Shown here: piece by piece, positions 27,914 through 54,175 of the stretch
Numbering within the stretch: position 1 is the first letter of the stretch
Layout: each line of letters starts with the position of its first letter
Source of the DNA: Phycisphaerales bacterium
GTDB lineage: Bacteria; Planctomycetota; Phycisphaerae; UBA1845
NCBI GenBank assembly: GCA_020639115.1
Contig: JACKHG010000005.1
Span: forward strand, 114,071-178,070
Length of the DNA: 64,000 nt
Reading direction: 5' to 3'
Program-made: the position numbers and the translations under genes
The notes under the pieces: generated by a model
The model's input: the letters and a program-made list of their open reading frames with translations, nothing else
Database searches by the model: none
What the model was told of the DNA's origin: nothing

Positions 27914-27980
27914 GACGCCACCTCGCAATGAAGTTCAGAAATGCCCCCCCATCAGCCCCCGCCACAACCGCCCCCCCAAC

Positions 27981-31597: not shown

Positions 31598-31660
31598 CTT
31601 GATACTCCCCCCCCCCGACAACCATGCCTGTGATCTCCCCAACCGTCGCCGGCACGCCCC

Positions 31661-31688
31661 ATTCATCATTCCGCATTCATCATTCATC
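31661..31688. repeat. heptamer array ATTCATC/ATTCCGC x4 (family R1)
   Basis: Direct reading. Overlaps the stop and last codons of the minus-strand gene 31680-32234. Confidence 0.8.
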
Positions 31689-33883: not shown

Positions 33884-34849
33884 ATGCCCGCCCCCGACCC
33901 CCAATCACCCGACGCCCAAACACCCGACGCCCTGATGCCCGACGCCCCAACACCCGCAGACCAAGCCCCCGACGCCCAGGCGCCAACCACCGCGGCCGAC
34001 GGCGTGCCCGCAGACGTCCCGCCCGATCAGCTCCTCTGCCCCGCCTGCGACTACCGCCTCTACGGTCTCCGCGAACCCCGCTGCCCCGAGTGCGGTACCG
34101 CCTTCACCTGGGACGACGTCCGCTCCGCCGCACGCGCCGGCTCGGACATGTTCGAGCACCGCTTCCGCACCCAACCCCTCCGCTCCCTCCTGCGCACCTG
34201 GTACCGCGCCGCCTTCTGGCCCGAACGCGTCTGGCAGCGCCTCCGCGCCCTCAACCGCCCCGTTGCCCTCCCCCTCATCCTCTTCATCGCCCTCCAGGTC
34301 GTCGTCTTCACCCACGGCTACGAAGCCGTCGCCCGCGGAATCGAACCCGCCATGAACCACGTCAGCCGCTGGATGAGCGGCGCGCACGCCACCCCCCTTT
34401 GGGTATTCACCTACCGCATGGCCGTCGACTTCGACTTCTTCCCGCGCATGCTCGCCTGGTACGTGTTTACCCTCACGTTCATGCTCATCCTCGGCCGGTC
34501 CGCCTCCTACGCCGGCAGCTACTGGCGCCACGTCCTGCGCATCTACGCCCACGCCACCGCCTTCGCCGCCCTCTGCCCCGCCATCTGGTGCCTCCTCGAA
34601 GCCTGCGTCGACGCCAGCCTCTTCTTCCGCACGCCGGGCGCCGGCGCCCCCTTCACCCTCCCCTTCAACCCCCGCGCCTACTACTACCTCGCCCAGGGCA
34701 TCTTCGTCGTCGCCGTACTCGTCACCTGGTACCACCTCCGCATCGCCTACCGCGACTACCTCCACGTCCGCTACGCCGCCTTCGCAGCCGGCCTCGTCAT
34801 GCTCTCGGGCTACATCTTCGCCGACCTCACCCTCACCGTGATGCTGTAA
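33884..34849 (+). CDS. polytopic membrane protein with N-terminal zinc ribbon (CPACDYRLYGLREPRCPECG)
   Basis: P/A/D-rich leader, then the CxxCxYxLxGx5CPECG motif, then at least 5 TM helices. Divergent from the P1-P5 operon. Confidence 0.72.
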   Translation: MPAPDPQSPDAQTPDALMPDAPTPADQAPDAQAPTTAADGVPADVPPDQLLCPACDYRLYGLREPRCPECGTAFTWDDVRSAARAGSDMFEHRFRTQPLRSLLRTWYRAAFWPERVWQRLRALNRPVALPLILFIALQVVVFTHGYEAVARGIEPAMNHVSRWMSGAHATPLWVFTYRMAVDFDFFPRMLAWYVFTLTFMLILGRSASYAGSYWRHVLRIYAHATAFAALCPAIWCLLEACVDASLFFRTPGAGAPFTLPFNPRAYYYLAQGIFVVAVLVTWYHLRIAYRDYLHVRYAAFAAGLVMLSGYIFADLTLTVML

Positions 34850-34957: not shown

Positions 34958-36187
34958 ATGCGTATCGCCGCCTTCCAACGCCGCCGCTGGCCCGCCGCCG
35001 TCAAGGCGGCTGGCTACGACTGCGTCACCCTTCCCGCGCCCCCCAACAGCGCGTACTTCCAGGCGACGCTCGACGACCTCATCGCCCACGGCCGCTACGT
35101 CCGCGACCTGCTCGAAGCCGAGCCCGTCGACCTCATCGTCGACGCCCACGGCGACGGCATGCTCTTCGTCGACGACCCGCGCGAACGCGGCCGCGACGCC
35201 CTGCTGCACCACCACCTGGGCGTCCCGCTCTTCTCGCACTTCAGCGAGACCCTGCGCATCCTGTTTCGGCGCATCGAACCCGCGCTGCTCTTCGAGATGC
35301 TCCAGAGCCCCACCTGGCACAAGGGCCTCTTCGTCCGCGCCCACGTGGCCGAGATGGCGTTTTTTGGTATTCCCAACTGCTGCTACCTGCCCCTCGCCGC
35401 CGACGACGACCTCTACCCCACGCAACCGCCCGACGTCGACCACGCCGGGCCGCTCGTCTTCTTCGCCGGGCACCAGCAGTCCCGCTACTTCGCCCACGCC
35501 GACGGCGCCGACACGCGCCTGCAGCGCAGCGGAGCGCTCGCCCTCGCCGCCGTCGCGGACGCGTCCGCGGGCAGCTTCCTCGAGGCCTACCGCTGCTACG
35601 CCCTCGGACCCGAACCGGCGCCCGACGCGCCGCCCGCGGACCGCGCCGAGTGCGCCCGCCGCTACTACGCCCACAAGCTCTTCTACACCGCGGCCCGCAA
35701 CCTCGGCACCCGCGACCGCTTCGTCGTCCGCCTCGCCCGGCAGCTCGGCGACCGCTTCCTGCTGGTCGGCGACGAGCGCTGGCAATCCCAGTACGGGCTC
35801 GAGCCCACGCCGCGCCTCGCCGACGACGACTACTACCGCCGCCTGCGCACCACCCCGCTGTGCCTCAACGTCGTCAACGGCGACAACGACACCGGCCTCA
35901 ACCTCCGCCCCTTCGAAATCACCGCTTGGGGCGGACTGTTGCTCCACTACCACCAACCCGAACTGCCCGAACTCTTCGACATCGGCGAGGAGTGCGTCTC
36001 CTTCCGCAACGAGGCGGAACTGTTCGACCGCATCCGCCACCTCGCGGAAAACCCCCGCCAGCGCGACGAAATCGCCCGCGCCGGCCAGGAACGCACCCTC
36101 CGCGAACACCTGCTCCACCACCGCCTCGCCACCATCCTCGACCAGGTATTCCAGGAGACCCGCGTTGAAAGCTGCCAGCCAAGCTGA
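34958..36187 (+). CDS. CgeB-family glycosyltransferase-like protein (DUF3880 / Glyco_trans_1_2)
   Basis: C-terminal ...FEITAWGGLLLHYHQPELPELFDIGEECVSFRNEAELFDRIRHLAENPRQRDEIARAGQERTL, typical of CgeB-like proteins. Confidence 0.72.
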   Translation: MRIAAFQRRRWPAAVKAAGYDCVTLPAPPNSAYFQATLDDLIAHGRYVRDLLEAEPVDLIVDAHGDGMLFVDDPRERGRDALLHHHLGVPLFSHFSETLRILFRRIEPALLFEMLQSPTWHKGLFVRAHVAEMAFFGIPNCCYLPLAADDDLYPTQPPDVDHAGPLVFFAGHQQSRYFAHADGADTRLQRSGALALAAVADASAGSFLEAYRCYALGPEPAPDAPPADRAECARRYYAHKLFYTAARNLGTRDRFVVRLARQLGDRFLLVGDERWQSQYGLEPTPRLADDDYYRRLRTTPLCLNVVNGDNDTGLNLRPFEITAWGGLLLHYHQPELPELFDIGEECVSFRNEAELFDRIRHLAENPRQRDEIARAGQERTLREHLLHHRLATILDQVFQETRVESCQPS

Positions 36188-36836
36188 CCGCACCTTCGAC
36201 ACCACCAACAAGTGGGAGGACTGCAAACGCCTCTGCCGCGCGCCCCGCGTCGTCCTCGACTGCGGCGCCAACCGCGGCCAGGCCGCGCGCAACCTCCGCG
36301 AGGCCTACCCCCACGCGCGCCTCTTCTGCTTCGAACCCGTCTCTTCGGTGATTCCCCACCTCGAACCGGTCGCCCGCGAGCTGAACGCCGAGATCGTCGA
36401 GGCCGCGGTGAGCAACCGCACCGGAACCGCCGAGATCAACCTCACCGAGTCGCACGAGTCCAACTCGCTGCTCGGCTTCCTCGCGGACAACAACCCCCTG
36501 GAGAAATACCACCGCGTCCGCGGCACCGAACAGGTCCGCACCTGGCGGCTCGACGACTGGTGCGCCCAAGCCGGCGTAGCCCCGGCTGAGGTGGATGTGA
36601 TCAAGCTGGACGTGCAGGGCGCCGAGCTCATGGCCCTCGACGGCGCCACCCAGATCCTCGCCCACGTCCGCGTGGTGATGCTCGAGGTCGCCTTCGTCCC
36701 CTACTACGCCGCCTGCCCCCTCGACACCGACGTCCACGCGTACATGCGCGCCCGCGGCTTCACCCGCCGGCACCTCTACGCAGCCCCCATGCCCGAAATC
36801 TGGGCCGACGCCATCTACACCCCCTCCGCGTTCTGA
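36165..36836 (+). CDS. FkbM-family methyltransferase
   Basis: VVLDCGANRGQAARNL (SAM motif I) ...VIKLDVQGAELMALDGA. The start is provisional (TTG at 36165, overlapping the end of the previous gene). Confidence 0.78.
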   Translation: MKAASQADRTFDTTNKWEDCKRLCRAPRVVLDCGANRGQAARNLREAYPHARLFCFEPVSSVIPHLEPVARELNAEIVEAAVSNRTGTAEINLTESHESNSLLGFLADNNPLEKYHRVRGTEQVRTWRLDDWCAQAGVAPAEVDVIKLDVQGAELMALDGATQILAHVRVVMLEVAFVPYYAACPLDTDVHAYMRARGFTRRHLYAAPMPEIWADAIYTPSAF

Positions 36837-36940
36837 GCGAAATGCGGCGTGCCGCTGCTCATGTGGTGTGCCCCTGCTGATGCGGTGTGCCCCTGCTCTC
36901 GAGCAGTGCCCGACATCCGGTCCGCGCAGGGCGCCGCCAA

Positions 36941-36991
36941 GCCGGAGGGTATCTGCGTTTTGCCGAATCTCGGCATTTTCACGCGTAATCC
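36941..36991 (-). repeat. ~50-nt element X, copy 1 (inverted relative to copy 2)
   Basis: The reverse complement GGATTACGCGTGAAAATGCCGAGATTCGGCAAAACGCAGATACCCTCCGGC aligns by eye with 37393-37444 and 44473-44524. Confidence 0.55.
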
Positions 36992-37172
36992 CTTGTCCTC
37001 AAAGGACTTGGTATTCGCGCCGCGAGTGCGCTCGTGTGTGCGCTGGACCGACGGCTGCGGGGCTCACACAGAGCCGCTGCGCACGCCGAGACGGCAATCA
37101 TGGATTCGGAACAGAAGAAAACAGAGAGAACGGAGAACGGCGGGTTGGGGAGTGGCGAACAGCGGGCCGGGT

Positions 37173-37214
37173 GTCGCAGGTCGCAGGTCAAAGGTCGCAG
37201 GTCTCAGGTCGGGA
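37173..37214. repeat. heptamer array GTCGCAG-type x6
   Basis: gtcgcag gtcgcag gtcaaag gtcgcag gtctcag gtcggga. This is the inverse orientation of the array at 44742-44797. Confidence 0.8.
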
Positions 37215-37392
37215 GAACCCCGAATGAACGTCGGGAGAACCGCGAATGAACGCGAACAACGCGAAGAACGGCGTTTCTTGAATGACCTCTCTCCGTGAGC
37301 TCTGCGTCCCTGCGTGAGACCGGCTGCCCGCTGCCGGGCGACTGCGCAAACTGCGCATTCGCCGCGTGAGCCCTAACTGCAGTGCGGCAGAG

Positions 37393-37444
37393 GGTTTACA
37401 GTTGAAATTGCCGATTTCCTGGCAAAGTGACATATCCCCCGGGG
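37393..37444 (+). repeat. ~50-nt element X, copy 2
   Basis: GGTTTACAGTTGAAATTGCCGATTTCCTGGCAAAGTGACATATCCCCCGGGG. Confidence 0.55.
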
Positions 37445-37695
37445 GGGCGGAGTCTGGAGGCACTCAGTCCGGAGTCCGGAGGCGCGCGGCCCGCAGGTGG
37501 CCGTGGCCGGTCCGCGGGTGGCTCAGCCGGAGACGCGGAGCCGCTGAGGCAAGTTCTCCCAAGCGAGGCAGCCGTTCTCCGTTTCCTCAGTTAACTCCTG
37601 TTCTGCATTGATCGCCACAAAGCGCGATGAATCCTCCACCAGACCACACCCACTGGGCGCCATTTCCCCTCCGCCCCAGCGAACTCCTACCGATC

Positions 37696-37737
37696 CTATT
37701 TAATAACTAAGAGTATTAGTAGATATGTAGTGGTATA
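37696..37737. other. 42-nt AT-rich patch (~26% GC) in a ~70% GC context
   Basis: ctatttaataactaagagtattagtagatatgtagtggtata, counted by hand. Confidence 0.8.
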
Positions 37738-38448
37738 CCCGGGGTAGCTGCCTGACTGCTGACGCACCGCACGTAGCACCAGCCACCCCTGCGGTAAAGT
37801 GCCGCACGCGGGGAGCTGCCGTTTTGCAGTCGCCCAGCCCCCGTGCCCGTACCAGCCGGTACGGATCACGCCATGCCAGTAGCGCCCGGCCTCCTGGACG
37901 ACCGCGGCTGGGGAGGTAAGTACGCGTTTGCTGGAATCCTGCAATCCAGCGCGTAACCCTTGCCCGAGCCCACCTTGGCGTTCGCCGCCCGCAACGTGAA
38001 CTTCGCGCTCTCGGCGATCTGCCGTCAACCGACAGCTGGCGGCCAACCGCCGGCGGTAGGCTTTTACTTTAGAGCGTGCCAGGAACAGCGAGCCCTTATA
38101 GAACACCCTCACGCCGCCGGTGTGCCGGCTCTCCGCCTGCCTGCCCAAAAACGTTGCGCCGCAAGGCCCGGGGTTGCCGGGCAGCGGCTACCCTGGGTAA
38201 TCCCGTCCATTGCGAAACCCTACTCCAACGGAGTTGCCGCGCCGTGCCCGCAGACCGCCAGCCCGCGCCGCACCGAACCCTCATGATTGTTCGACCAGGT
38301 AATCGCCCGTCAGCAGCGAGCCCGCGGACGCGCCGTGTCGCGGCAGCGGCTGCCGAGCGGGGAGATCGAAGTGCTCATCGAGGGATACCGCTGACTCCGT
38401 CGTGCACACTTCGGCACCTGATAGCTAAAGAAAAGAAGGAGGCTGAAC

Positions 38449-38655
38449 ATGCCCAGAGGCAAGCACCTCAAGGTCATCATCGCCATCGACGGATCATGCA
38501 GCGTCGATGCGCTCAACTTCACCGGGTCCGCATGCCGCGTCGCCACGCTGGAGATCACCTCCATGCTGGGCGGCGATATCACCGAACAGCACGACAGGCC
38601 CGAGGCCCGGCTGCGTGAGCGGGCCAGCCAGGCTGAGCGAGAGGGGGCACGATGA
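38449..38655 (+). CDS. small protein (68 aa), DUF2997-like by pattern
   Basis: Strong AAGGAGG RBS 6 nt upstream. MPRGKHLKVIIAIDGSCSVDALNFTGSACRVATLEITSMLGG fits the I.I..DG....v.G..G..C...T..le..LG pattern as I recall it. Confidence 0.55.
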   Translation: MPRGKHLKVIIAIDGSCSVDALNFTGSACRVATLEITSMLGGDITEQHDRPEARLRERASQAEREGAR

Positions 38656-38975
38656 CCAGGATCAGGATCGCGTCCGACGGCACGGTGCGAGGGCTGTGGA
38701 CGGACGACGTGGTCTGGCGGGCGATCGGCCAGGTCGCAGTACGTCGGGCATCGCACGTGGAATTCTCCACGCGCCGTCAGCTTTGGTACGTCCGCGACGG
38801 CCGTGTGCGCAACGCGCTTACAGCGATCGTCCAGTTCGTGCTTCGGCGGCCGTGCGGTAAGATCCTGCATTGGGCCAGCAGCCGATCGGACGCATTGGCC
38901 TGGGAGGCGGCGCACTTCGGCGTCGGCGGTCCCGGCTGGGCCCATCGTTCGCGGCAGCGCAACGCAGTGAGCTGA
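38652..38975 (+). CDS. hypothetical protein (107 aa), mobile-element-type
   Basis: ATGA overlap with the previous gene. MTRIRIASDGTVRGLWTDD...RRASHVEF...WYV. Confidence 0.5.
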   Translation: MTRIRIASDGTVRGLWTDDVVWRAIGQVAVRRASHVEFSTRRQLWYVRDGRVRNALTAIVQFVLRRPCGKILHWASSRSDALAWEAAHFGVGGPGWAHRSRQRNAVS

Positions 38976-38980
38976 CCCGC

Positions 38981-39244
38981 TTGTTTCCCACGAGACTCAA
39001 TGAAGCGTCAGGAGTCGAAGAGACGCCGCTCACGTCGAAGCAACGACAAGCCCACCTCGCTGGAGGCGGCTGCAATTGTCCTTTTTGCGGATGTCCCCAG
39101 CTCGACGGCGGACCGGTCGACGTCAACGCAGGTACTGCGGGCCAGGACATCACCCGCCTCGGCTGCAGCCGCTCCTGGCGAGACTGCTACCGGTTGGTCG
39201 AGATAGTCCTCGAACGCGAGCACGCCGGACCAGGCACGAAGTAG
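38981..39244 (+). CDS. possible small zinc-ribbon protein (87 aa, TTG start)
   Basis: In-frame TTG 6 nt after the upstream stop. ..GGCNCPFCGCPQLDGGPVDVNAGTAGQDI..W.DCYRLVEI. There is no ATG, so this is weak. Confidence 0.3.
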   Translation: MFPTRLNEASGVEETPLTSKQRQAHLAGGGCNCPFCGCPQLDGGPVDVNAGTAGQDITRLGCSRSWRDCYRLVEIVLEREHAGPGTK

Positions 39245-39689
39245 ACACGCCCCGGGCCGCCGCACGTCGTGCCCACCCGTGGGGATCGGGTTCTGATACC
39301 TGGGCGCTTCGGCCACACCAGTTCATCCCCACCATGCCCACCCTGCAGGTCGCTGGGGCCTGCCCAAGGAGAAGCGATCAGCGGCGTTCCGCCGCCCGAC
39401 CGGCAGGCCGAATCAGATCCCATCCGCTGCCGGAGATTTCTCGGTGGATTGCTACGTCATTACTACCGCGTTGCCGCGTGAGGTTCTGTCGTCGGGGCGG
39501 CTCACCCCTCCGCACAGTTCTGCTCGCCGACTGGCGACGACTCTGCTATCATGCGCGCGGTCGCGGATGGTCGGCAAAATCAACCCTGCTGCGCCGCGCG
39601 ACCACGCCTTTACGCCGCTCTCCCAAAACTCCAGACTTTGGATGGCCGGGACGTCTACATTCTGGACCCGGTCTACGTGGACCTGCACG

Positions 39690-39762
39690 GGTAAAGATAC
39701 ATGGTGGTGCCATCGAGATCACCCGAATTCGTCACGACCTTCTTCACCCGCCGGCCCAGGCC
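39690..39762 (-). pseudogene. Rhs core fragment (..GLGRRV..VVTNSGDLDGTTMYLY), truncated next to the IS
   Basis: The DNA is nearly identical to 44166-44220 of Rhs gene 43056-44507. The reading frame ends in a stop right after YLY. Confidence 0.6.
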
Positions 39763-39798
39763 TCGTTGAAGGCGAGAGGGTGGTTTGCACGCCCCCCT

Positions 39799-40642
39799 GA
39801 CTAGAACCTATCCCTTTACTTGGTTTCCCATCATGAGCTGACTATCCTACTGCATGCTTAAACTCACGGACGAGCAGTTGGATTGGCTGACGGAACGGAT
39901 TCCGGATCATCAACCCAGCCCGAAGGGCGGACGACCGGCACTCGACAAGCGTCGGGCCATGCAGGGCATTTTCTGGATCCTGGACAACGGCGCCAAATGG
40001 AAGGACCTCCCCAAACGCTTCGGATCCAAGAGTGCCGTGCACCGCTGGTTCAAACGCTGGGTCGAGGACGGCGTATTTGAAAACATCATGCGTGACGCGG
40101 GTCGGCTGGTCGAGGAGCGCGACGGCTACCGGCTCTACGAGTGCTTCATCGACGCCACGTTCAGCAAGGCCAAGGGTGGTGGTGATGGCATCGGGTGCAC
40201 ACGCGCCGGAAAAGGCGTGAAAATCATGGTTCTCGTCGATGCCCGCGGCTTGCCGGTGGCGGTCGATACAGCTTCCGCGAGCCCGCATGAGTCGCAGCTG
40301 GTGCAGCGGCTCTTCGACTTCATGCTCACCAACGACGCGCCCGAGCGCATCGTCGGCGACAAGGCCTACGACAGCGATGGGCTCGATGCAGAACTCGACG
40401 CCGCGGGGATCGAACTGATCGCGCCGCATCGCCGCGATCGCAAGAAGAAGCACAAGACCCAGGACGGCCGCAGCCTGCGCCGGTACAAGCGCCGGTGGAC
40501 TGTGGAACGCACGATCGGCTGGATTCAGCACTTCCGTCGCCTGTGCATCCGCTGGGAGAAGTCGACTCTGATGTTCCAGGGTTTTCTGCATATTGGCTGC
40601 ACGCTACTATTACTCAAAGAGGTTTTGGGATAGCTTCTAGTC
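39799..40642 (+). mobile_element. IS5-family insertion sequence (844 bp)
   Basis: Terminal inverted repeats GACTAGAACCTATCCC (39799-39814) and GGGATAGCTTCTAGTC (40627-40642) match at 15 of 16 positions and enclose one transposase ORF. Confidence 0.85.
39854..40633 (+). CDS. IS5-family DDE transposase
   Basis: MLKLTDEQLDWLTERIP...GGRPALDKRRAMQGIFWILDNGAKWKDLP..FGS...VHRWFKRW...DATF...GDKAYDS...RWTVERTIGW, the classic IS5/IS427-group sequence. Confidence 0.92.
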   Translation: MLKLTDEQLDWLTERIPDHQPSPKGGRPALDKRRAMQGIFWILDNGAKWKDLPKRFGSKSAVHRWFKRWVEDGVFENIMRDAGRLVEERDGYRLYECFIDATFSKAKGGGDGIGCTRAGKGVKIMVLVDARGLPVAVDTASASPHESQLVQRLFDFMLTNDAPERIVGDKAYDSDGLDAELDAAGIELIAPHRRDRKKKHKTQDGRSLRRYKRRWTVERTIGWIQHFRRLCIRWEKSTLMFQGFLHIGCTLLLLKEVLG

Positions 40643-40682
40643 GGAAGCCAACCGAGGTCAAACTCGTCGAAATGTCCCGCAA

Positions 40683-41393
40683 CTAATGCTCGTGCATACT
40701 CTGGCGTAGGGCAAGGGTGGAAATACTCGAGACGACAATTGTAGTAGACACAACGAGGAAGAACCCCATCGCTAGGAGGCGTAGGTTCGGCGCGAGCAGT
40801 GGAATGCCCTGAGCAACGTGCCGGCCTATTACTGCAGTTGCAACGAGGCCCCCAAGCAACGCGCCAAACGCTGTTCGATTTCTCCGTGCTCGTAATCGCC
40901 AAAATGTAGTATGCGTTGGCATAGGCCGATACAAATCTCTGCCACACTCGGGACACACGCAGCTTTGGTTCCCCAGTAGACAATAGCCACACTGACAAGT
41001 GGGCTCATTAGGTCGCGACCGAGGCCAATATCCTGTGGCGATGAGGCAGAAACCTGATAGCAGAAACGGCCATAGGGGGTAAGAGTCGATCCATCCACGA
41101 CCCTGCTCTCCAAGCCTTGGCCACCAAACTGTGCTTTCCCCATCGACCCAGCCTGCCCAAATGTGCTTGCCATTCCAACCAAAAGAACCGTGGGCAATCA
41201 TCACTCCTCCAGGAACAAGTCCCACAACAACTCCATCAGGCACTTGGACATACCCGAAGGTAATGAAAAAACTGCTGGCGAACAGCAAGCAGAGAAAGAG
41301 AAAGGCGGTAATTCGTACGACGCCCTGCGCACGGGGTTCGACATGGGTCTCTTTCCGAACGAACGAGTTCATAGATGCAACCGATCGTAGCAA
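40683..41393 (-). CDS. membrane protein with internal zinc ribbon (CQCGYCLLGNQSCVCPECG); candidate immunity partner of the upstream Rhs-CT
   Basis: Lies 93 nt downstream of Rhs cassette 41487-42740. GC is about 50%. TM helices flank the motif. Confidence 0.6.
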   Translation of the reverse strand: MLRSVASMNSFVRKETHVEPRAQGVVRITAFLFLCLLFASSFFITFGYVQVPDGVVVGLVPGGVMIAHGSFGWNGKHIWAGWVDGESTVWWPRLGEQGRGWIDSYPLWPFLLSGFCLIATGYWPRSRPNEPTCQCGYCLLGNQSCVCPECGRDLYRPMPTHTTFWRLRARRNRTAFGALLGGLVATAVIGRHVAQGIPLLAPNLRLLAMGFFLVVSTTIVVSSISTLALRQSMHEH

Positions 41394-41486
41394 TATCGAT
41401 ATTTCCTCTTGTTTCTACAAATACACCGGTTCGTCGCCCGTGCGAGACTTATTGAGTTCGGCTGTACAGTTTGTATCCATCGCAGA

Positions 41487-42740
41487 TCAGACCCCTGGAG
41501 GAAAGCTTGGTGGCGTAGCTGGAGAGGTCTTGTTTGGCGTATTGTTATCGTTGAAGCAGCTCCATGCCCCTGGACAATTCCAGCTTGTAGGGGCTGAATC
41601 CCTCCACTCGGTGCTCTCTTCGCATCCGCAAACGGTCACGTTCTTTTGCTTGCATTTGCTGTTCCTGGCAACATGTTCGGCTTGCCCATTCGTGCCTCCT
41701 GGACCATCTCTCCCCGACTGACAACTCAGGAAATTGATCGTACCGCCGTCCTTCATCTTTCCACATAATGTGCCCGCTGGAATAGTGCTGGGAGGTCGTG
41801 AGTTCCCGCACCTTACGTACCCTCCGCCGCCAGTGCAACCGTGGGCCCCAATGTCAAGTCTGTCGGCCGAGTCATCCGTTATCTTATTTAGATAATCTTG
41901 GCACTTTGCGCACTTATCGAAAGGCCAAGATTGATCGTATCCAGAGACCTGTCCGAAACCAGGCGTAGAACCTTCATCATAGAATAGGATACTTGTGTGC
42001 CCAGACCAATCGGTTCGGGCAAGTGGACTGGCTGCGGTGGCGACATACAAGTTTTGACCGTCGGCGTATCCGCTACGGGCTACGTGAGATTCGATCAGTG
42101 GATCCCTCTGCATAAAACGCTTCGCCCGCGGCGAATACTGCCGCGCCCGGTTCTGATACGACCCGATTTCCGGATCGAGCACCAGCCCTTGGTGGGCAAA
42201 GAGGTTGCTGCGGCGGCTGTGGGTGGCGGCGGGGACGCGCTGCAGCTCGGTGTCGCTGTTGAGGGTGGCAATGTAGGCGGCGATGGCCGTCTGATCGGCG
42301 CTGTCCACCACGCCGTCGGCATTGGCGTCCAGCCGGCGGCAGTCGCCGCTTGCGGCGCCAGAGCACGTGCCATTTGTCGTCACAGCGTAGTCGTCGTCGT
42401 CCACGTCGCCGTCGTCGTCGTAATCGAACGGGTGGGCCGCCACGACCGCCTCCAGCTCGCCGTACGGGCTGTACCAGTAGCGCTCGATCACCCGGCCGGT
42501 GAGGTCGGTCAGCGCGGTGACGTTCCAGTTGGCGTCCTGGGACGCGTACAGCCGGCCGAGGTCCTTCACCCTCAGGCCGACGACCTCGTCGATGTAGCGC
42601 GTGCCATGGTACACCTGCACCTCCACGTTCCCCAAGCCGTCGAAAGTGCCATGACCCCACTGAGCATTCGGTTGGCCATTGTCAGAGCTCAGAACCATAC
42701 TGCGCCAGTGGTCAGGTTTCCCGATCGATCGGCGTTCCAC
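41487..42740 (-). CDS. orphan (5'-truncated) Rhs repeat-associated core plus variable Cys-rich C-terminal domain (CT1)
   Basis: YD repeats, then ..YWYSPYGE.., then the core end FAHQGLVLDPEIGSYQNRARQYSPRAKRFMQRDPL, then a low-GC unique tail. At 417 aa it is far shorter than full-length Rhs. Confidence 0.78.
   Translation of the reverse strand: MERRSIGKPDHWRSMVLSSDNGQPNAQWGHGTFDGLGNVEVQVYHGTRYIDEVVGLRVKDLGRLYASQDANWNVTALTDLTGRVIERYWYSPYGELEAVVAAHPFDYDDDGDVDDDDYAVTTNGTCSGAASGDCRRLDANADGVVDSADQTAIAAYIATLNSDTELQRVPAATHSRRSNLFAHQGLVLDPEIGSYQNRARQYSPRAKRFMQRDPLIESHVARSGYADGQNLYVATAASPLARTDWSGHTSILFYDEGSTPGFGQVSGYDQSWPFDKCAKCQDYLNKITDDSADRLDIGAHGCTGGGGYVRCGNSRPPSTIPAGTLCGKMKDGGTINFLSCQSGRDGPGGTNGQAEHVARNSKCKQKNVTVCGCEESTEWRDSAPTSWNCPGAWSCFNDNNTPNKTSPATPPSFPPGV
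42110..42633. repeat. 524-bp Rhs-core duplication, copy 1
   Basis: Collinear with 43613-44136 at equal length and roughly 90% identity by eye. Confidence 0.8.
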
Positions 42741-43047
42741 ATTCTGGACAGATCCCGCTCACATTCCCTACCAGACTGTATTGACAAGTTTGACAGTACT
42801 GGCCGCGCGAGCACAAGTTCTTCCATCGAAGCGCTACATATACTCTACGTGAAACAAGGTATGCGATCGGGACAGCGACGAGGGGGCTAACCACCGCAGC
42901 GATATCAAAACGAACCTCCAAGCTGCCAAGTACGACAAGTGGAATGCCGACAATCAGCCAACAGCTCACTGCGAATACGATAATGGAACATGCAGCTGAC
43001 ACATGTCTCGAGAGTCGGGATTGCTTGGCTGTATCGCGTGTCGACAT
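42712..43047 (-). CDS. small membrane protein with C-terminal zinc ribbon (CQTCQYSLVGNVSGICPECG); candidate immunity partner
   Basis: Starts 9 nt after the stop of Rhs gene 43056-44507. Two TM helices. Its 3' end overlaps the annotated start of the next Rhs cassette by 29 nt. Confidence 0.62.
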   Translation of the reverse strand: MSTRDTAKQSRLSRHVSAACSIIVFAVSCWLIVGIPLVVLGSLEVRFDIAAVVSPLVAVPIAYLVSRRVYVALRWKNLCSRGQYCQTCQYSLVGNVSGICPECGTPIDRET

Positions 43048-43055
43048 AATTCAGT

Positions 43056-44507
43056 CTATTCCATGCAGCACCTATTCATAACGTCCTCCGCAGCATTAAT
43101 GCAATTCCTCCAGGGACGCCAACTTTGGTGCTCGTCCCACCACGCCATCTCCCAGCCAACGCAAGTCGCAATCTCGTTGCAGCTCATACTGTTGCAGGGC
43201 TTACCTGCACCTTGATGTGGACTACTTGATCCAGTATTCCTGACCTTCAGCGTGCGACAAGTCGTAAGCGCATTGTGAGTACATGAAAACCACCCAACGG
43301 GAAAACTGTAGCACGTAACGCCGCCACCAGGCTCGTCGGCTTCAAGCCAAGTATGTCCGACGATGAGGGTCTCAATCGCGTCTGCCCACCTTCGACACTT
43401 CCTAATGCCGCATTCGCGCCGTTGATCCGGAAGCCCATCTCCATTGACATCATCGGCATCAGATTGCTGCTGGTCCGAATTGACCGACGTAACTGAATAC
43501 GTTCTGTCATACCCATTCGCAATCCACCCATCAGATCGGCCGCTTGCAGCGACGGTGGGCTGGCTCTCGAGAGTCTGTCCCGCCTTGGTTGCTAGGGCCC
43601 AAGTATGGCGTTGCATAAACCGCTTCGCCCCGGGCGCATACTGCCGCGCCCGGTTCTGATACGACCCGATCTCCGGATCGAGCACCAGGCCCTGGTGGGC
43701 GAAGAGGTTGCCGCGACGGCTGTGGGTGGCGGCTGGCACGCGTTGCAGCTCGGTGTCGCTGTCCAGCGTGGCGAGGTACGCGGCGACGGCCGTGCGGTCG
43801 GCACCGTCCAGCACGCCGTCGGCGTTGGCGTCCAGCCGGCGGCAGTCGCCGGTGGCTGAGCCGCTGCACGTACCGTTGGTGGTCACGGCGTAATCGTCGG
43901 CGTCCACGTCGCCGTCGTCGTCGTAATCGAACGGGTGGGCCGCCACGACGGCCTCCAGCTCGCCGTACGGGCTGTACCAGTAGCGCTCGATCACCCGGCC
44001 GGTGAGGTCGGTCAGCGCGGTGACGTTCCAGTTGGCGTCCTGGGACGCGTACAGCCGGCCGAGGTCCTTCACCCTCAGGCCGACGACCTCGTCGATGTAG
44101 CGTGTGCCGTGGTACACCTGCAGCTCCACGTTCCCCGAGCCGTCCCGCGTCTCGATGATCTGCTGCCCATGGTAAAGATACACGGTGGTGCCATCGAGAT
44201 CACCCGAATTCGTCACGACCTGAGCGCTCCCGCCTTGGTCGCGTTCAGTCACCCGCCGGCCCAGGCCGCCGAGAGCGACTATCTGGATGACCACCTCCTT
44301 CACGCTCCCGCCTTGGTCGGGTTCAGCATTCAGTGTGGCTTTTGACCCACCCCAGACACTCCGTCCTCCTTTGCCTCCTTGTTCAAGCCATGCCGTTGCC
44401 GCCTCAGCGTACTCTGCGTGACGCGGACAACAGGTGCATTCCGGATGCGAGGCGCAAGCCCGGCGCCGGCAACGATTTACGGTGAGAAATGCCGGATTGG
44501 TGGCCAA
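43056..44507 (-). CDS. orphan (5'-truncated) Rhs repeat-associated core plus different Cys-rich C-terminal domain (CT2)
   Basis: Same core as 41487-42740 up to ..AKRFMQR, then a divergent tail (HTWALATKAG...NRCCME). The N-terminal ~60 aa are of doubtful coding quality. Confidence 0.75.
   Translation of the reverse strand: MATNPAFLTVNRCRRRACASHPECTCCPRHAEYAEAATAWLEQGGKGGRSVWGGSKATLNAEPDQGGSVKEVVIQIVALGGLGRRVTERDQGGSAQVVTNSGDLDGTTVYLYHGQQIIETRDGSGNVELQVYHGTRYIDEVVGLRVKDLGRLYASQDANWNVTALTDLTGRVIERYWYSPYGELEAVVAAHPFDYDDDGDVDADDYAVTTNGTCSGSATGDCRRLDANADGVLDGADRTAVAAYLATLDSDTELQRVPAATHSRRGNLFAHQGLVLDPEIGSYQNRARQYAPGAKRFMQRHTWALATKAGQTLESQPTVAASGRSDGWIANGYDRTYSVTSVNSDQQQSDADDVNGDGLPDQRRECGIRKCRRWADAIETLIVGHTWLEADEPGGGVTCYSFPVGWFSCTHNALTTCRTLKVRNTGSSSPHQGAGKPCNSMSCNEIATCVGWEMAWWDEHQSWRPWRNCINAAEDVMNRCCME
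43613..44136. repeat. 524-bp Rhs-core duplication, copy 2
   Basis: See 42110-42633. Confidence 0.8.
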
Positions 44508-44524
44508 GTGTGATATCCCCGGGG
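44473..44524 (+). repeat. ~50-nt element X, copy 3
   Basis: CGATTTACGGTGAGAAATGCCGGATTGGTGGCCAAGTGTGATATCCCCGGGG, about three-quarters identical to copy 2 by eye. Confidence 0.55.
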
Positions 44525-44525
44525 A

Positions 44526-44567
44526 AGCTATCAGCTGTCAGCGGTCAGCTTTCAGCCTTCAGCCAAC
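44526..44567. repeat. heptamer array AGCNNTC x6
   Basis: agctatc agctgtc agcggtc agctttc agccttc agccaac. Confidence 0.8.
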
Positions 44568-44741
44568 GACCGCCAGCCGCTGCGCGGCTGGGGCCCCCAC
44601 TGGCGTGGGGGTTCGGACGTGCAGCCGGAGGTGGGCAGGCTGGAGTCCGGAGGCACGGCGGGCACTGCGTGGCCCGGCCCCCCGTTGGCGTGGGGGGTTC
44701 TGAAGGACCCGGCACGGCAGGCAATAGCGGGCCCGACGGCG

Positions 44742-44797
44742 TGCGACCTTATGCCTGCGACCTTGGACCTTCGACCTGCGACCTGCGACCGTCGACC
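44742..44797. repeat. heptamer array TGCGACC-type x8 (reverse complement of the 37173 array type)
   Basis: tgcgacc ttatgcc tgcgacc ttggacc ttcgacc tgcgacc tgcgacc gtcgacc. Confidence 0.8.
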
Positions 44798-44846
44798 GGC
44801 TATCAAGAACCGCCGTTCTCCGCGTTATCTGCGTCTCTGCGGTTGT

Positions 44847-45977
44847 TCACAACAGGCTGCGCAAGGTTCTTACCACCCGGTCGACGTCCTGCTCGGTGAG
44901 GAAGGCGTGGAACGGGAGGGCGATCGTGCGGTTCGCGACCGTCTCGCAGATGGGGAAATCTCCAGCGCGGCAGCCCAGGTCCGCCTGGTAGAACGGCTGG
45001 AGGTGGATGGGCGAGAAGTAGTTGTTGCACCCGATCCCCGCGGCGCGGAGGCCCGCCATGATCTCGTCCCGCGCTCCCACCGGGTAGTCGTCCGCCAGCT
45101 TCACCACGTACACGAACCAACTCTTCGTGCTCCCCGGCGGCGTCGCCTGCTGCGTGAGCCGCGGCTCATCCTTCAGCCGCGCGTCGTACAGCGCCGCCAC
45201 GCGCGCCCGGGCGGCCAGGATTTCCGGCAGCCGCGCGACCTGCACCACGCCGATGGCGCAGTTGATGTCGGCGAGGCGGAAGTTGTAGCCGAGGCGCTCG
45301 TGCGCGAGCCAGCCAGCCGTCGCCGCGCGGCCCTGGTTGCGAATCGACCGGCAGAGCGCGGCGATCTCCGCGTCGTCGGTGACGACCATGCCGCCCTCGC
45401 CCGTCGTGATCTGCTTGTTGGGATAGAAGCCGAACACCCCCGCGTCCCCGAGCGAGCCTGCCACGGCGCCGCCCCGAGTGGCGCCGGCTGCCTCGCAGGA
45501 ATCCTCGATCACGCGCAGGTTGTGCCGGCGGGCGATGGCGCGGATGGCGTCCATATCGGGGATGATGCCGAACACGTCGACGGTGAGAATCGCCTTGGTG
45601 GCGGGCGTGATCGCCGCCTCGATCCGCGCCGGGTCCAGGCACCAGTACTGCGGATCCATGTCCACGAAAACCGGCTTGGCCCGCTCGAACAGGATGCAGT
45701 TCGCCGAGGCCACGAAGGAAAACGGCGTCGTGATCACCTCGTCGCCCGGGCCGAGCCCCATCGCCCGCACGACCATGTGCAGGGCGCTCGTGCCGCTGTT
45801 GCAGGCCACGGCGTGCTCGGTCCCGCACAGCCGGGCGAAGTCCTCCTCGAACTCGGGCACCTTGGGGCCCAGCGAGAGGTTGGGGCTGCGCAGCACCGCC
45901 ACGACAGCCTCGATTTCCTGGTCGGTGATATCCGGACGGGCGAGGGCGATTTCGCCGGGACGGGTCGAATGGCTCAT
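44847..45977 (-). CDS. DegT/DnrJ/EryC1/StrS-family PLP-dependent sugar aminotransferase
   Basis: ..GDEVITTPFSFVASANCI.. and the PLP-Lys region FGFYPNKQITTGEGGMVVTDD. Start MSHSTRPGEIALARPDI (ATG at 45977). Confidence 0.9.
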   Translation of the reverse strand: MSHSTRPGEIALARPDITDQEIEAVVAVLRSPNLSLGPKVPEFEEDFARLCGTEHAVACNSGTSALHMVVRAMGLGPGDEVITTPFSFVASANCILFERAKPVFVDMDPQYWCLDPARIEAAITPATKAILTVDVFGIIPDMDAIRAIARRHNLRVIEDSCEAAGATRGGAVAGSLGDAGVFGFYPNKQITTGEGGMVVTDDAEIAALCRSIRNQGRAATAGWLAHERLGYNFRLADINCAIGVVQVARLPEILAARARVAALYDARLKDEPRLTQQATPPGSTKSWFVYVVKLADDYPVGARDEIMAGLRAAGIGCNNYFSPIHLQPFYQADLGCRAGDFPICETVANRTIALPFHAFLTEQDVDRVVRTLRSLL

Positions 45978-46216
45978 GCGGCGGCTCACGGAGGGGTGCG
46001 GTTCAGCCGGGTCCGGCACCTGCCGATACCAGCGCTGGCAGGCGCATCTGCGCTGCGACCGATAAGGCGCACCCCGAGCGCCCTGGCGGTCGCGAAGCGG
46101 CGATGATAGGGATACGACCGGCGCGTGGCAACGGTTCGTCTTGCACGGGCCACCGCCGCTCCTATCATGGCCCGACCGTTTCGAGGAAAAAGACACCGCA
46201 CCGGGAGATCCCACAC

Positions 46217-47536
46217 GTGCTACATCGCCAGCAGATCGAGCGCATCAACGACCGTTCCTTCGTCGTCGGTATTATCGGGATGGGTTACGTCGGCCTGCCG
46301 CTGACCCGCTCGTTCTACGACGCCGGCTTCAAGTGCGTCGGCTTCGACGTGGACGAACGCAAGATCAAGATGCTCAACGCCGGCAAGAGCTACATCAAGC
46401 ACATCACCTCGGAGTTCATCGCCAAGGCGCGCAAGGAGGGCCGCTTCCGCGCGACCTCCGATTTCGCCGAGCTGAAGAAGGTGGACGCGATCATCATCTG
46501 CGTGCCCACGCCGCTCACCAAGATGCGCGAGCCGGACATGTCGTACGTGCAGAAGACGTGCGAGGTGGCTGCGAAGTACCTGCGCAAGGGGCACCTCGTT
46601 GCGCTGGAGAGCACGACCTATCCCGGCACGACGCGCGAGCTCATGCTCCCGCTGCTCGCCGCCGGCGGGCTCAAGGTGGAGCGCGACTTCTTTCTTGCGT
46701 TTTCCCCGGAGCGCGAGGACCCCGGCCGCAAGACGCACACGACCACGACGATTCCCAAGGTGGTCGGCGGTTACGGTCCGAAGAGCCTCGCCGTGGCCAA
46801 GGCGCTCTACGGCGCCGCGCTCGAGACCGTGGTGCCCGTCTCGAGCTGCGAGGTGGCGGAGGCCGCGAAGATCCTCGAAAACGTCTACCGCTGCGTGAAC
46901 ATCGCGCTGGTCAACGAGATGAAGGTGCTCTTCGACCGCATGAACATCAACGTCTGGGAGGTGATCCAGGCGGCGGCCACCAAGCCGTTCGGCTTCCAGG
47001 CCTTCTACCCCGGCCCGGGGCTCGGCGGCCACTGCATCCCCATCGATCCGTTCTACCTCACCTGGAAGGCCCGCGAGTACGGCATGAACACGCGGTTCAT
47101 CGAGCTGGCCGGCGAGATCAACACGGACATGCCCGAGTACGTGGTGCACAAGACCGCGGAGGCCCTCAACACCCACAAGAAGCCGCTGAACGGCTCGAAG
47201 GTGCTCGTGCTCGGACTCGCCTACAAGAAGGACGTGGACGACCTGCGCGAGTCGCCCTCCATCGAGATCATCGAGTTGTTGCGCGAGCGTGGCGCGAAGG
47301 TCGCCTACAACGACCCCTTCTTCAAGCAGACCCACAAGCAGCGTGAGCACGACCTGCGGATGAAGAGCACCCCGCTCACGCCCGCGTCGGTCAAGGGCTT
47401 TGACTGCGTCTTGATTGCAACCGATCACTCCTCGTACGATTATCAGTGGATCGTGGATCACGCCCAGCTCGTGGTCGACACCCGCAACGCGACGGCGGGC
47501 TGCAAGCGCGTCGCGCGCAAGGTGGTCAAGGCGTAG
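46217..47536 (+). CDS. UDP-N-acetyl-hexosamine (nucleotide-sugar) dehydrogenase (WecC/TviB/WbpA-like)
   Basis: Rossmann motif GIIGMGYVGLP and catalytic Cys region GPGLGGHCIPIDP. GTG at 46217. Confidence 0.9.
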   Translation: MLHRQQIERINDRSFVVGIIGMGYVGLPLTRSFYDAGFKCVGFDVDERKIKMLNAGKSYIKHITSEFIAKARKEGRFRATSDFAELKKVDAIIICVPTPLTKMREPDMSYVQKTCEVAAKYLRKGHLVALESTTYPGTTRELMLPLLAAGGLKVERDFFLAFSPEREDPGRKTHTTTTIPKVVGGYGPKSLAVAKALYGAALETVVPVSSCEVAEAAKILENVYRCVNIALVNEMKVLFDRMNINVWEVIQAAATKPFGFQAFYPGPGLGGHCIPIDPFYLTWKAREYGMNTRFIELAGEINTDMPEYVVHKTAEALNTHKKPLNGSKVLVLGLAYKKDVDDLRESPSIEIIELLRERGAKVAYNDPFFKQTHKQREHDLRMKSTPLTPASVKGFDCVLIATDHSSYDYQWIVDHAQLVVDTRNATAGCKRVARKVVKA

Positions 47537-47587
47537 AGGTGGTCAAGGCGTAGAGGTGGTCAAGGCGTAGAGGTGGTCAAGGCGTAG
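47520..47587. repeat. 17-bp tandem repeat x4 (AGGTGGTCAAGGCGTAG) that includes the gene's stop codon
   Basis: Four perfect copies. Copy 1 encodes the last residues (K)VVKA* of 46217-47536. Confidence 0.9.
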
Positions 47588-47616
47588 CTGCGCCGAGAGG
47601 CCCGGTCGAGGACGCA

Positions 47617-49056
47617 TTGAGTATTCACAGGTCGAGGACGCCGCGCCGGACGCTGCATGCGCTCGCCGCCGCCCTGCTGGCGGCTGCGCTGCCGGCCCCC
47701 GCGCGCGCGGCTGAGGCGGCGGATCCAGCCGACGTCGGCAGCATCAGCCTGCCCGAGACCCGCCGCGACGTGGTCCGCATGATCGACGACGGCGCCGCGT
47801 GGAGCGCCTGCGCCCGGCGGCTCGAGGCGGACCTCGCAGCCGCCACCGACCGGTCAGCGGCCCCGCCGTGTGAGGCGTTGCTCGCCAGCATCCGCCTGAA
47901 TCTCGCCGACGCATCCACGACGGGCGTCGCCGCCCCGGCGGACATCGACGCCCTGATCGCCAACCTCTCCGAGGCCCGCGTCAATCCCGGCCTGCTGATG
48001 GCGCCGCTGCAGACCATCACCTTCGAACCGCAGCTCGCCTGGACCGTGCTCGCCCAGCGGGCCATCCCCGGTGCGTCCGCGTCGGCGTACGACCTGTTCC
48101 GGCAGGGCCGCCGCGCGATCCCCGCGCTGATCGCGGCGCTGGACGATCAGCGGGCCACGCGCACGACGGTCTCCGACCTGCGGACCGGCGACGAGCCGCT
48201 GGTCTTTCGCGTGGGCGACGTGAGCCTGGCGCTGCTCCAGGCCATCACGTTGTGCCGCTTTCAGCACCCCCTCAACGGCTACAACCTGCGCGCCGCGGAT
48301 CAGCCGCTGTTTTCCCAGTGGGCCGCCGACCGGCACGCCGCCCAGAGCGCGGTCGTCCGCGACTGGTGGGACGCCACGCACGGCATGTCCGCGGACGACG
48401 CGGTGCGCTGGTTCCTCGAGCGACCCGACACGGACCGGCCCCAGCAGCTCGACACGGCCGACGCCCTGATTGCCTTGGGCCAGAGCGGCGTCGTCCGACC
48501 CTTCCTCGAGACCCGTTTCCAGAACGGCCGCCTCATCGATTACTCGATATCCCAGCGGCTCGTCCGCGCCGGCTCGCGGGCGCCGCTCGATTTCGTCCAG
48601 GAGATCATCCGCAACGGCGAGCCGACCACGGAGGAGATGGTCCGCCTCATCGCGGAGTTCGGCGAGATCGACGACTTCAAGCTGCTCCGCGACGCGGTCC
48701 TCGACCCGGCGCGGTTTTCCCAGCCGCTGAACAATCGCATGGTGACCAACCAGATGCTCTCGACCGACCGCCCCCTCGCCATCCCCGTGCTCATCGCGGT
48801 GATCGAGCGGCGTGAGGGGCCCGAATTGCCGGCCTCGGCGCTGGCGGCCTCCGGTGCGGCTATTCCCTCGCACCTGCTCCGCGCCGGCGAGTGGATCCAG
48901 GAACTGAGCGGCAAGGACTTCGGCTTCGGTGAGGACCGTTCACCCTACTTCCTCGCCCGCGCGTTCGACGACATCCTGCTCTGGTGGAAGCGTGAAGGCC
49001 AAGCCGCCTGGGACTACGACCAGAACCGCCCGCAGGCCACCAGCGGCATCCGCTGA
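47617..49056 (+). CDS. secreted hypothetical protein, HEAT/ARM-like helical repeats
   Basis: Signal peptide ..LAAALLAAALPAPARA. Contains ..IPALIAALDDQRA... No catalytic motif recognised. Confidence 0.62.
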   Translation: MSIHRSRTPRRTLHALAAALLAAALPAPARAAEAADPADVGSISLPETRRDVVRMIDDGAAWSACARRLEADLAAATDRSAAPPCEALLASIRLNLADASTTGVAAPADIDALIANLSEARVNPGLLMAPLQTITFEPQLAWTVLAQRAIPGASASAYDLFRQGRRAIPALIAALDDQRATRTTVSDLRTGDEPLVFRVGDVSLALLQAITLCRFQHPLNGYNLRAADQPLFSQWAADRHAAQSAVVRDWWDATHGMSADDAVRWFLERPDTDRPQQLDTADALIALGQSGVVRPFLETRFQNGRLIDYSISQRLVRAGSRAPLDFVQEIIRNGEPTTEEMVRLIAEFGEIDDFKLLRDAVLDPARFSQPLNNRMVTNQMLSTDRPLAIPVLIAVIERREGPELPASALAASGAAIPSHLLRAGEWIQELSGKDFGFGEDRSPYFLARAFDDILLWWKREGQAAWDYDQNRPQATSGIR

Positions 49057-49154
49057 GCGGCGTATTTCCCCCATTCAAAACGCCACGCGGCTGTGTAATC
49101 GCGAAATCCCGTCACCCCCGCTAGGCTGAGCGTCGTGAATTCGGAGCGGGATGG

Positions 49155-50318: not shown

Positions 50319-50401
50319 GCTGGCCCACAATGGCAACGGGTCCGGCGAAGTGAGCTTCGCCGGACCCGCGTATGGGCTCTCTCTCTCGTGATTCGGTGGG
50401 C

Positions 50402-51925: not shown

Positions 51926-52298
51926 TCAGCTCCTGATTCGGACCCGGTCGCCACGGCGACGCGCAGCGGCGAGTTGGAATGAATACGAGCCCGGCGTGAG
52001 CTCACGCCGGCTGCGCGGGGACCGCGCGGGCTACTCCGGTATTCACTATCCAATACGTCGGCGGAACGGACCACCCACGTAAACAAGTTGGCGTTCGAAT
52101 TCGGACCTGCGCTGGGGCTGGAGATTATCGGTCTTTCGGCGTGGCCGGGGGATGGATCGGCAGTCTTTGCCGCAACCGCGCCGGCGTGGATGCATATATT
52201 GTAACGTCGAACCGGGGACGAGAGCGGAATTGCGACGCCGGACGGCAGCCGGTCGAGCTTTCACGTCCGCATCCGGGCACCCCGGGAGTGCAGCCGGT

Positions 52299-54174: not shown

Positions 54175-54175
54175 G

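Follow-up and report, generated by a model that had tools for sequence, protein, structure and literature searches.

Does a passage from a C-rich to a G-rich top strand mark an origin of replication (oriC), or does it mark a place where the DNA has been rearranged or misjoined? This question is raised by a stretch of 64,000 nucleotides (nt) from a Phycisphaerales bacterium (assembly GCA_020639115.1, contig JACKHG010000005.1, positions 114,071 to 178,070; the whole stretch is referred to as the window), in which the GC skew changes at an 8-kb island (36.84-44.85 kb) carrying an insertion sequence (IS) of the IS5 family and pieces of Rhs elements. Under the usual rule the leading strand is G-rich, and the sign of the switch is indeed of the origin type, as noted in the original prediction, which was made from the sequence alone. 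The same prediction named a repeat-associated rearrangement breakpoint and an assembly join as alternatives, and these fit the data better. A replication origin at this place is not supported. We consider it likely that a lineage-specific rearrangement, with its junction in the IS5/Rhs mobile DNA, joined a strongly skewed block on the left to a weakly and oppositely skewed block on the right.

Strand composition along the window

The distribution of G and C on the top strand was analyzed by change-point segmentation over the whole window together with a 2-kb sliding profile. Genes were called from the G+C content at third codon positions and Pfam matches, and skew was also taken at four-fold degenerate sites. 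The segmentation gave a GC skew of −0.203 for 1-9765, +0.111 for 9766-14577 (GC content 62%, against about 67% for the window), −0.270 for 14578-36827, −0.036 for the near-neutral 36828-49829, and +0.065 for the weakly G-rich 49830-64000. The strongest change point was 36,828 (gain 524 in chi-square-like units), coinciding with the stop codon (36834-36836) of an FkbM-type methyltransferase gene, which is the left edge of the island. The discontinuity is real and far beyond chance.

At four-fold sites the left block (14.6-36.8 kb) showed a top-strand skew of −0.66 in plus-strand genes and −0.69 in minus-strand genes, that is, about five C per G, with A in excess over T on the same strand. The first part of the window (1-9765) gave −0.39 to −0.60, plus and minus genes alike, and the right block (44.8-64 kb) gave +0.13 and +0.10 for plus and minus genes, respectively. 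Because the values are equal for genes of both orientations, the asymmetry is a property of the DNA strand, independent of the direction of transcription. Skew driven by transcription was rejected, the four-fold skew of the coding strand being opposite in sign between plus and minus genes of the left block. Inside the right block the four-fold skew was −0.06 to −0.16 in 44.8-50.3 kb and +0.11 to +0.46 in 52.5-64 kb. A contig of the Joint Genome Institute (JGI) collection (L001) extends this block, and the weakly G-rich domain runs on in it to at least 68 kb, with a four-fold mean of +0.20 over 50.4-68 kb. The two sides are lopsided by about 3- to 4-fold in skew strength, −0.27 versus +0.065 overall and −0.67 versus +0.20 at four-fold sites.

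The polarity switch described in the original prediction is real in outline, and its strongest step falls at the left edge of the flagged interval (36.8-44.85 kb), but the change of sign, with the cumulative-skew minimum of the window at 49,820, lies inside a gene 5 kb beyond that interval. The description of the left 36.8 kb as C-rich regardless of gene orientation holds at four-fold sites on both strands, except that the G-rich segment at 9.77-14.58 kb had been missed. G was said to equal or exceed C from about 44.5 kb onward, but 44.8-49.8 kb is still slightly C-rich. Five of the hand-counted 60-nt lines were exact, while 20001-20060 has C26/G11 (not 28/13) and 44601-44660 has C13/G32 (not 15/29).

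The reversed segment (9766-14577) holds an ORF-poor stretch (ORF, open reading frame), in which tandem repeats of 17 and 42 nt are located (10841-10969), as well as a small membrane ORF with a zinc ribbon, an MFS transporter gene and a gene for an HlyD-type fusion protein, the last two with four-fold skews of +0.24 and +0.29. It is probably an inserted or inverted segment. With this reversal embedded in the C-rich domain, the skew along the contig is a mosaic. The same kind of mosaic was observed at other loci of Phycisphaerae and Sedimentisphaerales, one of which (L046) is on a complete chromosome.

Four-fold skews of −0.6 to −0.8 were found in unrelated high-GC loci of Planctomycetota and Acidobacteriota as well (for instance L026 and L068, in both of which the C-rich strand carries most genes), and the strength of the skew in the left block is not unique. 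In two metagenome-assembled genomes (MAGs) of Bryobacteraceae (L059 and L066) the GC skew shifts smoothly from about −0.34 to +0.30 across about 20 kb, and weaker gradients were seen in L060 and L072. The four-fold skew of L059 passes from −0.66 to +0.60 within a largely co-oriented polysaccharide gene cluster, gene orientation being irrelevant. A literature search on GC skew in Phycisphaerae yielded nothing relevant.

The island between the two blocks

Between 36.84 and 44.85 kb there is an island of mobile, hypervariable DNA, which does not resemble the spacer of an origin. Its left edge is formed by an ORF-poor spacer (36837-38448) with a 19-nt repeat in three copies (36842-36898), a heptamer array and a 22-nt repeat in two copies (37208-37252). 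The GC content of this spacer is 60-67%, with a single AT-rich patch of 30 nt near 37,700, and no protein family, RNA family or DnaA-box signal was detected in it. An Rfam search of the whole island, with E values up to 1, gave no RNA family. The flip had been said to coincide with the only large ORF-poor region; the stretch at 36.84-38.45 kb is truly ORF-poor, but a second one lies at 9.4-11.0 kb.

Each edge of the island carries one arm of an imperfect inverted repeat, which is composed of a GAGAACGGCGG motif and a (GTCGCAG)n heptamer array. In the left arm (37104-37211, plus strand) the motif precedes the array; the right arm (44744-44831, minus strand) stands at the right edge. The array occurs in the window only in the left arm and at 44.75-44.80 kb (9 matches versus 0.69 expected). 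An inversion of the island alone between the two inverted arrays was rejected as the cause of the step, as the flanking blocks would stay unchanged.

Following the spacer are two small overlapping ORFs (38449-38975, plus), the first of the DUF2997 family and the second without a family, and a fragment (39690-39765, minus), about 76 nt long, that comes from the end of an Rhs core and of which the first 51 nt repeat 44171-44221 at 98%. The fragment adjoins an IS5-family DDE transposase gene (39854-40633, plus; DUF4096 and DDE_Tnp_1; NF033580 at 206 bits, cut-off 110). The rest of the island is occupied on the minus strand by two Rhs modules, each with a small ORF downstream of its tip. The first is an orphan Rhs C-terminal module with core and variable tip (41487-42740; TIGR03696 at 43 bits, cut-off 32.5), with a gene for an immunity-like membrane protein with a C-terminal zinc ribbon (40683-41393; GC 50-55%) downstream of its tip. 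The second is a 5'-truncated module with the end of the core and a tip (43056-44507; TIGR03696 at 24 bits, below the cut-off), followed by a small immunity-like membrane/zinc-ribbon ORF (42712-43047). The first module and 43612-43911 share a 300-nt repeat at 86%, after which the tips diverge, and altogether three Rhs core ends stand in direct orientation in the island. Core domain, variable tip and small downstream ORF are thus all present, as in orphan Rhs arrays. A full-length rhs gene, with its N-terminus and its body of YD repeats, is lacking upstream of 44,507, where 340 nt of repeats lead directly to a DegT-family gene. Neither the tips nor the immunity-like ORFs matched a toxin or immunity family in Pfam or NCBIfam.

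The AT-rich patch that had been placed at the flip exists in the form of patches of 50-55% GC (40.6-41.8 and 42.6-43.4 kb), but these are the coding sequences of the Rhs tips and the immunity-like genes.

The gene at 40683-41393, the IS5 copy and the Rhs tip recur together in two other metagenome assemblies (L083 and L084), which were found by a metagenome search with the immunity-like ORF of the island and cover its interior only. From the end of the IS5 copy through the immunity-like gene and the Rhs tip, L083 (sample ERZ795053) and the window are 99.9% identical. Its positions 1-1950, compared with 42641-44507 of the window, hold a different upstream Rhs cassette, indicating that the Rhs array varies at the strain level. 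A zinc ribbon of the form CxxC...Y.L.GN....CPECG stands at the C-terminus of four proteins of the window, encoded at 10331-10699 (plus), 33884-34849 (plus), 40683-41393 (minus) and 42712-43047 (minus). The three shorter ones resemble small membrane proteins, and a homolog is present in a JGI contig of a relative (L086, see below). Those at 40683-41393 and 42712-43047 lie directly downstream of the Rhs tips, the position expected of immunity genes.

Search for the elements of a replication origin

DnaA boxes were searched for with the consensus TTATCCACA. At one mismatch or less there were two matches in 64 kb (52422 and 63278), compared with 2.9 expected, and none fell in 36.8-52.4 kb. The variant TTWTNCACA gave one match. 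When two mismatches were allowed, the island held 12 matches versus 8.9 expected, with no cluster beyond chance, and the sole local excess was in the lower-GC Rhs coding region. Neither dnaA nor dnaN was found among 40 Pfam-scanned ORFs, which cover all confident gene calls of the window. An AT-rich unwinding element in non-coding DNA beside such boxes was not seen either. At an oriC the cumulative minimum should separate flanks of similar skew magnitude, and its position should be conserved relative to the flanking genes in relatives; around the minimum at 49,820 the magnitudes differ, and the position is not conserved.

A dif-like core (ATAA-N6-TTAT) was also looked for. One weak match was found at 37,703 in the AT-rich patch of the spacer and was rejected, since its arms agreed at only 5-6 of 11 positions, as judged by eye, with the arms of E. 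coli dif.

Gene order in relatives

Homologs of the junction-side glycosyltransferase of the left block (34958-36187) were found at 81%, 74% and 73% identity. The closest relative (L089) is syntenic with 32.5-36.82 kb of the window and agrees with it at 81% of the DNA positions of the glycosyltransferase and FkbM genes, and a 293-kb JGI contig (L086; 3300028648, Ga0268299_1000132) is syntenic with 28.1-36.82 kb, its glycosyltransferase being 74% identical. In both, synteny stops at 36,818-36,821, the 3' end of the FkbM gene. Past this point follows a gene of 285 amino acids (aa) in L086 and 289 aa in L089, 77% identical to each other and absent from the window, so that the alternative left arrangement is common to the two relatives. 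The next genes in L086, for a 736-aa glycosyltransferase, a PALP enzyme, fumarase and others, are likewise missing from the window. The C-skew of these relatives has the same orientation relative to the genes as in the window, and across and beyond the end of the FkbM gene the top strand stays C-rich, with four-fold means of −0.35 (L086) and −0.55 (L089).

The right block has its counterpart on another contig of the same sample as L086 (L088; Ga0268299_1000319, 165 kb), where the first dynamin-like GTPase has a homolog at 64%. Synteny with this contig, at 45-89% identity, begins at 44,850, the 3' end of the DegT gene, and covers DegT, the UDP-sugar dehydrogenase, two unknown genes, a 509-aa gene, two GTPases, methionine aminopeptidase and onward through the cytidylate-kinase-like gene, PFOR and DHODH (the last from the L001 extension of the window). 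DegT is 81% identical to its ortholog, whose neighbor is a 642-aa gene absent from the window; the contig ends 2 kb past DegT. The four-fold skew is +0.21 in L088 and +0.20 in the window. In a more distant relative (L092, 60%) the core is retained between a 526-aa gene and DHODH, corresponding to the window from 50.4 kb, and the four-fold skew is −0.07. Among GTDB species representatives the best match to DegT was 68%, the nearest being Phycisphaerae MAGs, and there only the pair of DegT and UDP-sugar dehydrogenase is conserved.

Since left synteny ends at FkbM and right synteny starts at DegT, with different neighbors in the relatives, both edges of the island are synteny breakpoints. Each block keeps its own skew regime where the two are not adjacent, and a fixed origin would not behave in this way. 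Among the evidence on the origin reading, this comparison carries the most weight.

Alternative explanations

A true chromosomal origin in the spacer or island (36.8-45 kb, or as far as 52 kb), with the two sides as the two replichores, would agree with the sign of the switch, with the independence of skew from gene orientation on both sides, with the excess of A over T that accompanies that of C over G in the left block, as expected when the top strand is the lagging one, and with the presence of 1.6 kb of non-coding DNA at 36.84-38.45 kb. The elements themselves are lacking: no box with one mismatch or less between 36.8 and 52.4 kb, no cluster above chance at two mismatches, and no dnaA or dnaN in the window. 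The skew magnitudes are unequal and the cumulative minimum lies within a gene at 49.8 kb; the low-GC patches are coding Rhs cassettes; the C-skew passes the end of the FkbM gene without a switch in two relatives, in which the right block is elsewhere; and most of the coding length of the left block lies on the C-rich strand, i.e. the presumed lagging strand. The origin reading is unsupported, and we regard it as extremely improbable. It is very unlikely, if slightly less so, that the step is a stable boundary in the replication programme, with the left block always replicated in one direction and the right block in a zone of mixed fork direction, where a weak skew would be the equilibrium; a diffuse or secondary zone of initiation or termination would be an example of such a zone, and is given the same low credence. 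In line with such a boundary, relatives share the weak skew of the right block even though synonymous divergence is saturated, the four-fold skew climbs within it from −0.1 (44.8-50.3 kb) to +0.2 to +0.46 (52.5-60 kb), and smooth gradients occur at a homologous gene cluster in the Bryobacteraceae loci L059 and L066. The left edge, however, is abrupt, shows no gradient and coincides with mobile DNA and a break in synteny, the two blocks lie apart in a relative, no origin or terminus motif was found, and the sign of the skew is not that of a terminus. To our knowledge, mixed fork direction over tens of kb has not been established in bacterial chromosomes outside terminus regions. It is hardly probable, too, that the unequal and stable regimes (−0.67/+0.20 here, −0.35/+0.21 in the relative) represent the polarity switch of one chromosome, made without DnaA boxes in or beside a hypervariable island; with the same slight probability, that switch would adjoin a zone tens of kb long with mixed fork direction. 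If this were true, it would be a non-canonical origin or initiation zone in Planctomycetota.

An unlikely explanation, which nevertheless deserves more weight than these, is a chimeric assembly join, in which two co-occurring Phycisphaerae populations, one with strong and the other with weak skew, were fused through the repeats of the IS5/Rhs island. Two genomes would be the simplest explanation of the 3- to 4-fold gap in skew strength, each regime recurring in its own relatives (four-fold −0.35 and −0.55 in the left-type L086 and L089, +0.21 and −0.07 in the right-type L088 and L092). Three further assemblies are interrupted in or close to the region, and not one of them crosses a junction. 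In JGI sample 3300010349 the left block is found on contigs of 2.5 and 6.8 kb and the right block on a contig of 22 kb; the JGI contig L002 stops at 36,463 and the 22-kb contig starts near 46,138. No match to the exact 39-mer of the junction was found in viral contigs, and look-ups of spanning contigs by exact protein returned nothing for DegT (two starts), UDP-sugar dehydrogenase, FkbM or FtsX. A chimera is opposed by an independent third-party annotation (TPA) MAG, which bins short contigs of the left and right blocks together and in which the protein accessions of the two sides interleave (HRX85638 and HRX86577 on the right, HRX86790 and HRX86791 on the left, HRX86899 on the right, HRX87179 on the left). 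Contigs of one JGI sample match both sides at about 99.8-99.9% identity, and protein identity to the contigs of sample 3300028648 is similar (39-86% on the left, 45-89% on the right). Genes of polysaccharide synthesis and short tandem arrays between genes are present on both flanks. In addition, a cluster of indels at 24.33-24.76 kb suggests a long-read assembly, and long reads would span an island of 8 kb. Tetranucleotide signatures are uninformative in this respect because skew itself drives them: in strand-symmetrised counts, strongly skewed fragments of unrelated taxa correlate with the left block at 0.70-0.81, better than the right block, whose correlation with the left block is 0.60-0.68. 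By the proxies of co-binning and equal micro-divergence the two sides do not behave as different populations, and they probably belong to one genome.

A probable rearrangement at mobile DNA

A lineage-specific rearrangement thus remains the explanation that we favor. The compositional step is abrupt, independent of gene orientation and located at a gene boundary, synteny is lost at the same coordinates in relatives, and the junction is rich in recombination-prone repeats, namely the IS5 copy, the Rhs core ends, the truncated rhs module and the inverted heptamer arrays. Rhs elements and IS copies are classical substrates of recombination and transposition, and the name Rhs itself stands for rearrangement hot spot. 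A break within an element of this kind would agree with the truncated rhs module.

As the orientation-independent skew suggests, replication-associated mutation bias would have written the strong C excess of the left block and the weak G excess of the right block on the top strand. Recombination or transposition at the repeated mobile DNA may then have broken the neighborhoods of FkbM and DegT and joined these gene ends. Synteny breaks are seen at both edges, and the event could have been an inversion, a translocation or a deletion, none of which is singled out. The origin-like appearance of the step would be due only to the relative orientation of the two blocks. Partner breakpoints would be located at the FkbM-side and DegT-side neighbors of the relatives and at the missing 5' part of rhs.

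Several points weigh against this interpretation. The contiguity rests on one contig, neither junction being crossed by an independent assembly. The partner breakpoints, which would show the type of rearrangement, lie beyond the 64 kb. L086 and L088 may belong to two relative genomes and not to one. Furthermore, the unequal strength of the skew is probably an equilibrium property, not explained by a recent rearrangement, because the right block is about as weakly skewed in L088, and at 45-89% protein identity the synonymous sites must have reached saturation. Either the strand bias of this lineage really differs from region to region, or the blocks are from different genomes.

Genes of the flanking blocks

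The C-rich domain begins (1-9765) with genes on both strands for a BamB/PQQ-like propeller, an AMP-binding enzyme, a glycosyltransferase and an FtsX permease. A match to the Acido-Lenti-1 small RNA is located at 123-169 on the minus strand (44.5 bits, gathering score 37). The main part of the domain (14578-36827) includes core genes, among them those for a hybrid histidine kinase, selB, selA, a Ser/Thr kinase, a glycosyltransferase and the FkbM-family methyltransferase, which is the last gene of the left block (36165-36836, plus). A bacterial class A RNase P RNA is encoded at 31150-31596 on the plus strand (270 bits). On the other side of the island, the first gene of the right block is that of a DegT/DnrJ/EryC1 aminotransferase (44847-45977, minus). 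It belongs to a set of polysaccharide-type genes (44847-49829; DegT, UDP-sugar dehydrogenase, a 479-aa protein and a DUF3592 protein) in which the skew is close to neutral and slightly negative. The weakly G-rich domain (49830-64000) carries genes for two dynamin-like GTPases, methionine aminopeptidase, a cytidylate-kinase-like protein and PFOR. Exact-sequence matches were obtained for the histidine kinase (18117-21272, MCB9866020), the glycosyltransferase next to FkbM (34958-36187, MCB9866035) and PFOR (60367-63933, MCB9866054).

selB and selA are located at 21.4-24.8 kb. A tRNA search of the window detected neither tRNA-Sec nor any other tRNA, and hence no tRNA integration site. Between 24327 and 24755 the window differs from an otherwise near-identical JGI contig (L085) by 26 one-base indels and C/T changes. 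This cluster shortens the selA ORF to 344 aa, whereas the JGI call has 464 aa. It has the look of a long-read consensus left unpolished, or possibly of a pseudogene.

Intergenic tandem arrays were found at 14656-14733, 21322-21399, 31625-31702, 16078-16133, 26593-26619, 27980-28086 and 47520-47587. Their units include CATTCAT, AGTGAGAA with its inverse CTTTCTCA, CCTCAATC in 14 copies and a perfect 17-mer in four copies. The CATTCAT arrays belong to a dispersed element of 78 nt, with three copies on the same strand in the left block.

Implications and comparison with known systems

The locus calls for caution. In genomes with very strong strand bias, a rearrangement at mobile DNA or a misjoin can yield a skew step of the origin type, and a skew step alone should not be used to place oriC in a MAG. 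The parts of the contig at 36.4-37.3 kb and 44.4-46.2 kb are flagged for validation at the read level. What may interest the field is the mutational strand asymmetry, a block with about five C per G standing beside a weakly biased block of core genes whose weak regime is conserved in a relative. Such skew regimes side by side gain meaning only with whole-genome data.

The step itself is of a known and ordinary class of skew anomaly. Skew discontinuities produced by inversions, translocations, island insertions and misassemblies are the basis of SkewIT-type assembly checks (PMC7717575). The window resembles this class in its abrupt, orientation-independent step at a synteny breakpoint with mobile DNA, and in that each block retains the skew of its former context. 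It is unlike the class in that one breakpoint is visible in 64 kb, and in that the magnitude differs as well and the weak regime is conserved in relatives, neither of which is predicted by a simple recent inversion.

When compared with bacterial oriC, the locus is similar in the change from C-rich to G-rich and in a nearby non-coding stretch of 1.6 kb. It differs in having no DnaA-box cluster, dnaA or dnaN, in the asymmetric magnitudes of the skew, in a minimum lying 5 kb outside the interval and in a gene, and in a position not conserved in relatives.

The island differs from known Rhs elements in that its array is truncated 340 nt before DegT, with no full-length YD-repeat rhs upstream, and in that its tips and immunity-like ORFs match no toxin or immunity family of Pfam or NCBIfam. 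In other respects it agrees with Rhs and IS5 elements as known: two core-domain modules with divergent tips are accompanied by small downstream ORFs, the core ends form direct repeats, the IS5 DDE transposase stands beside a core fragment, and the cassettes vary between strains.

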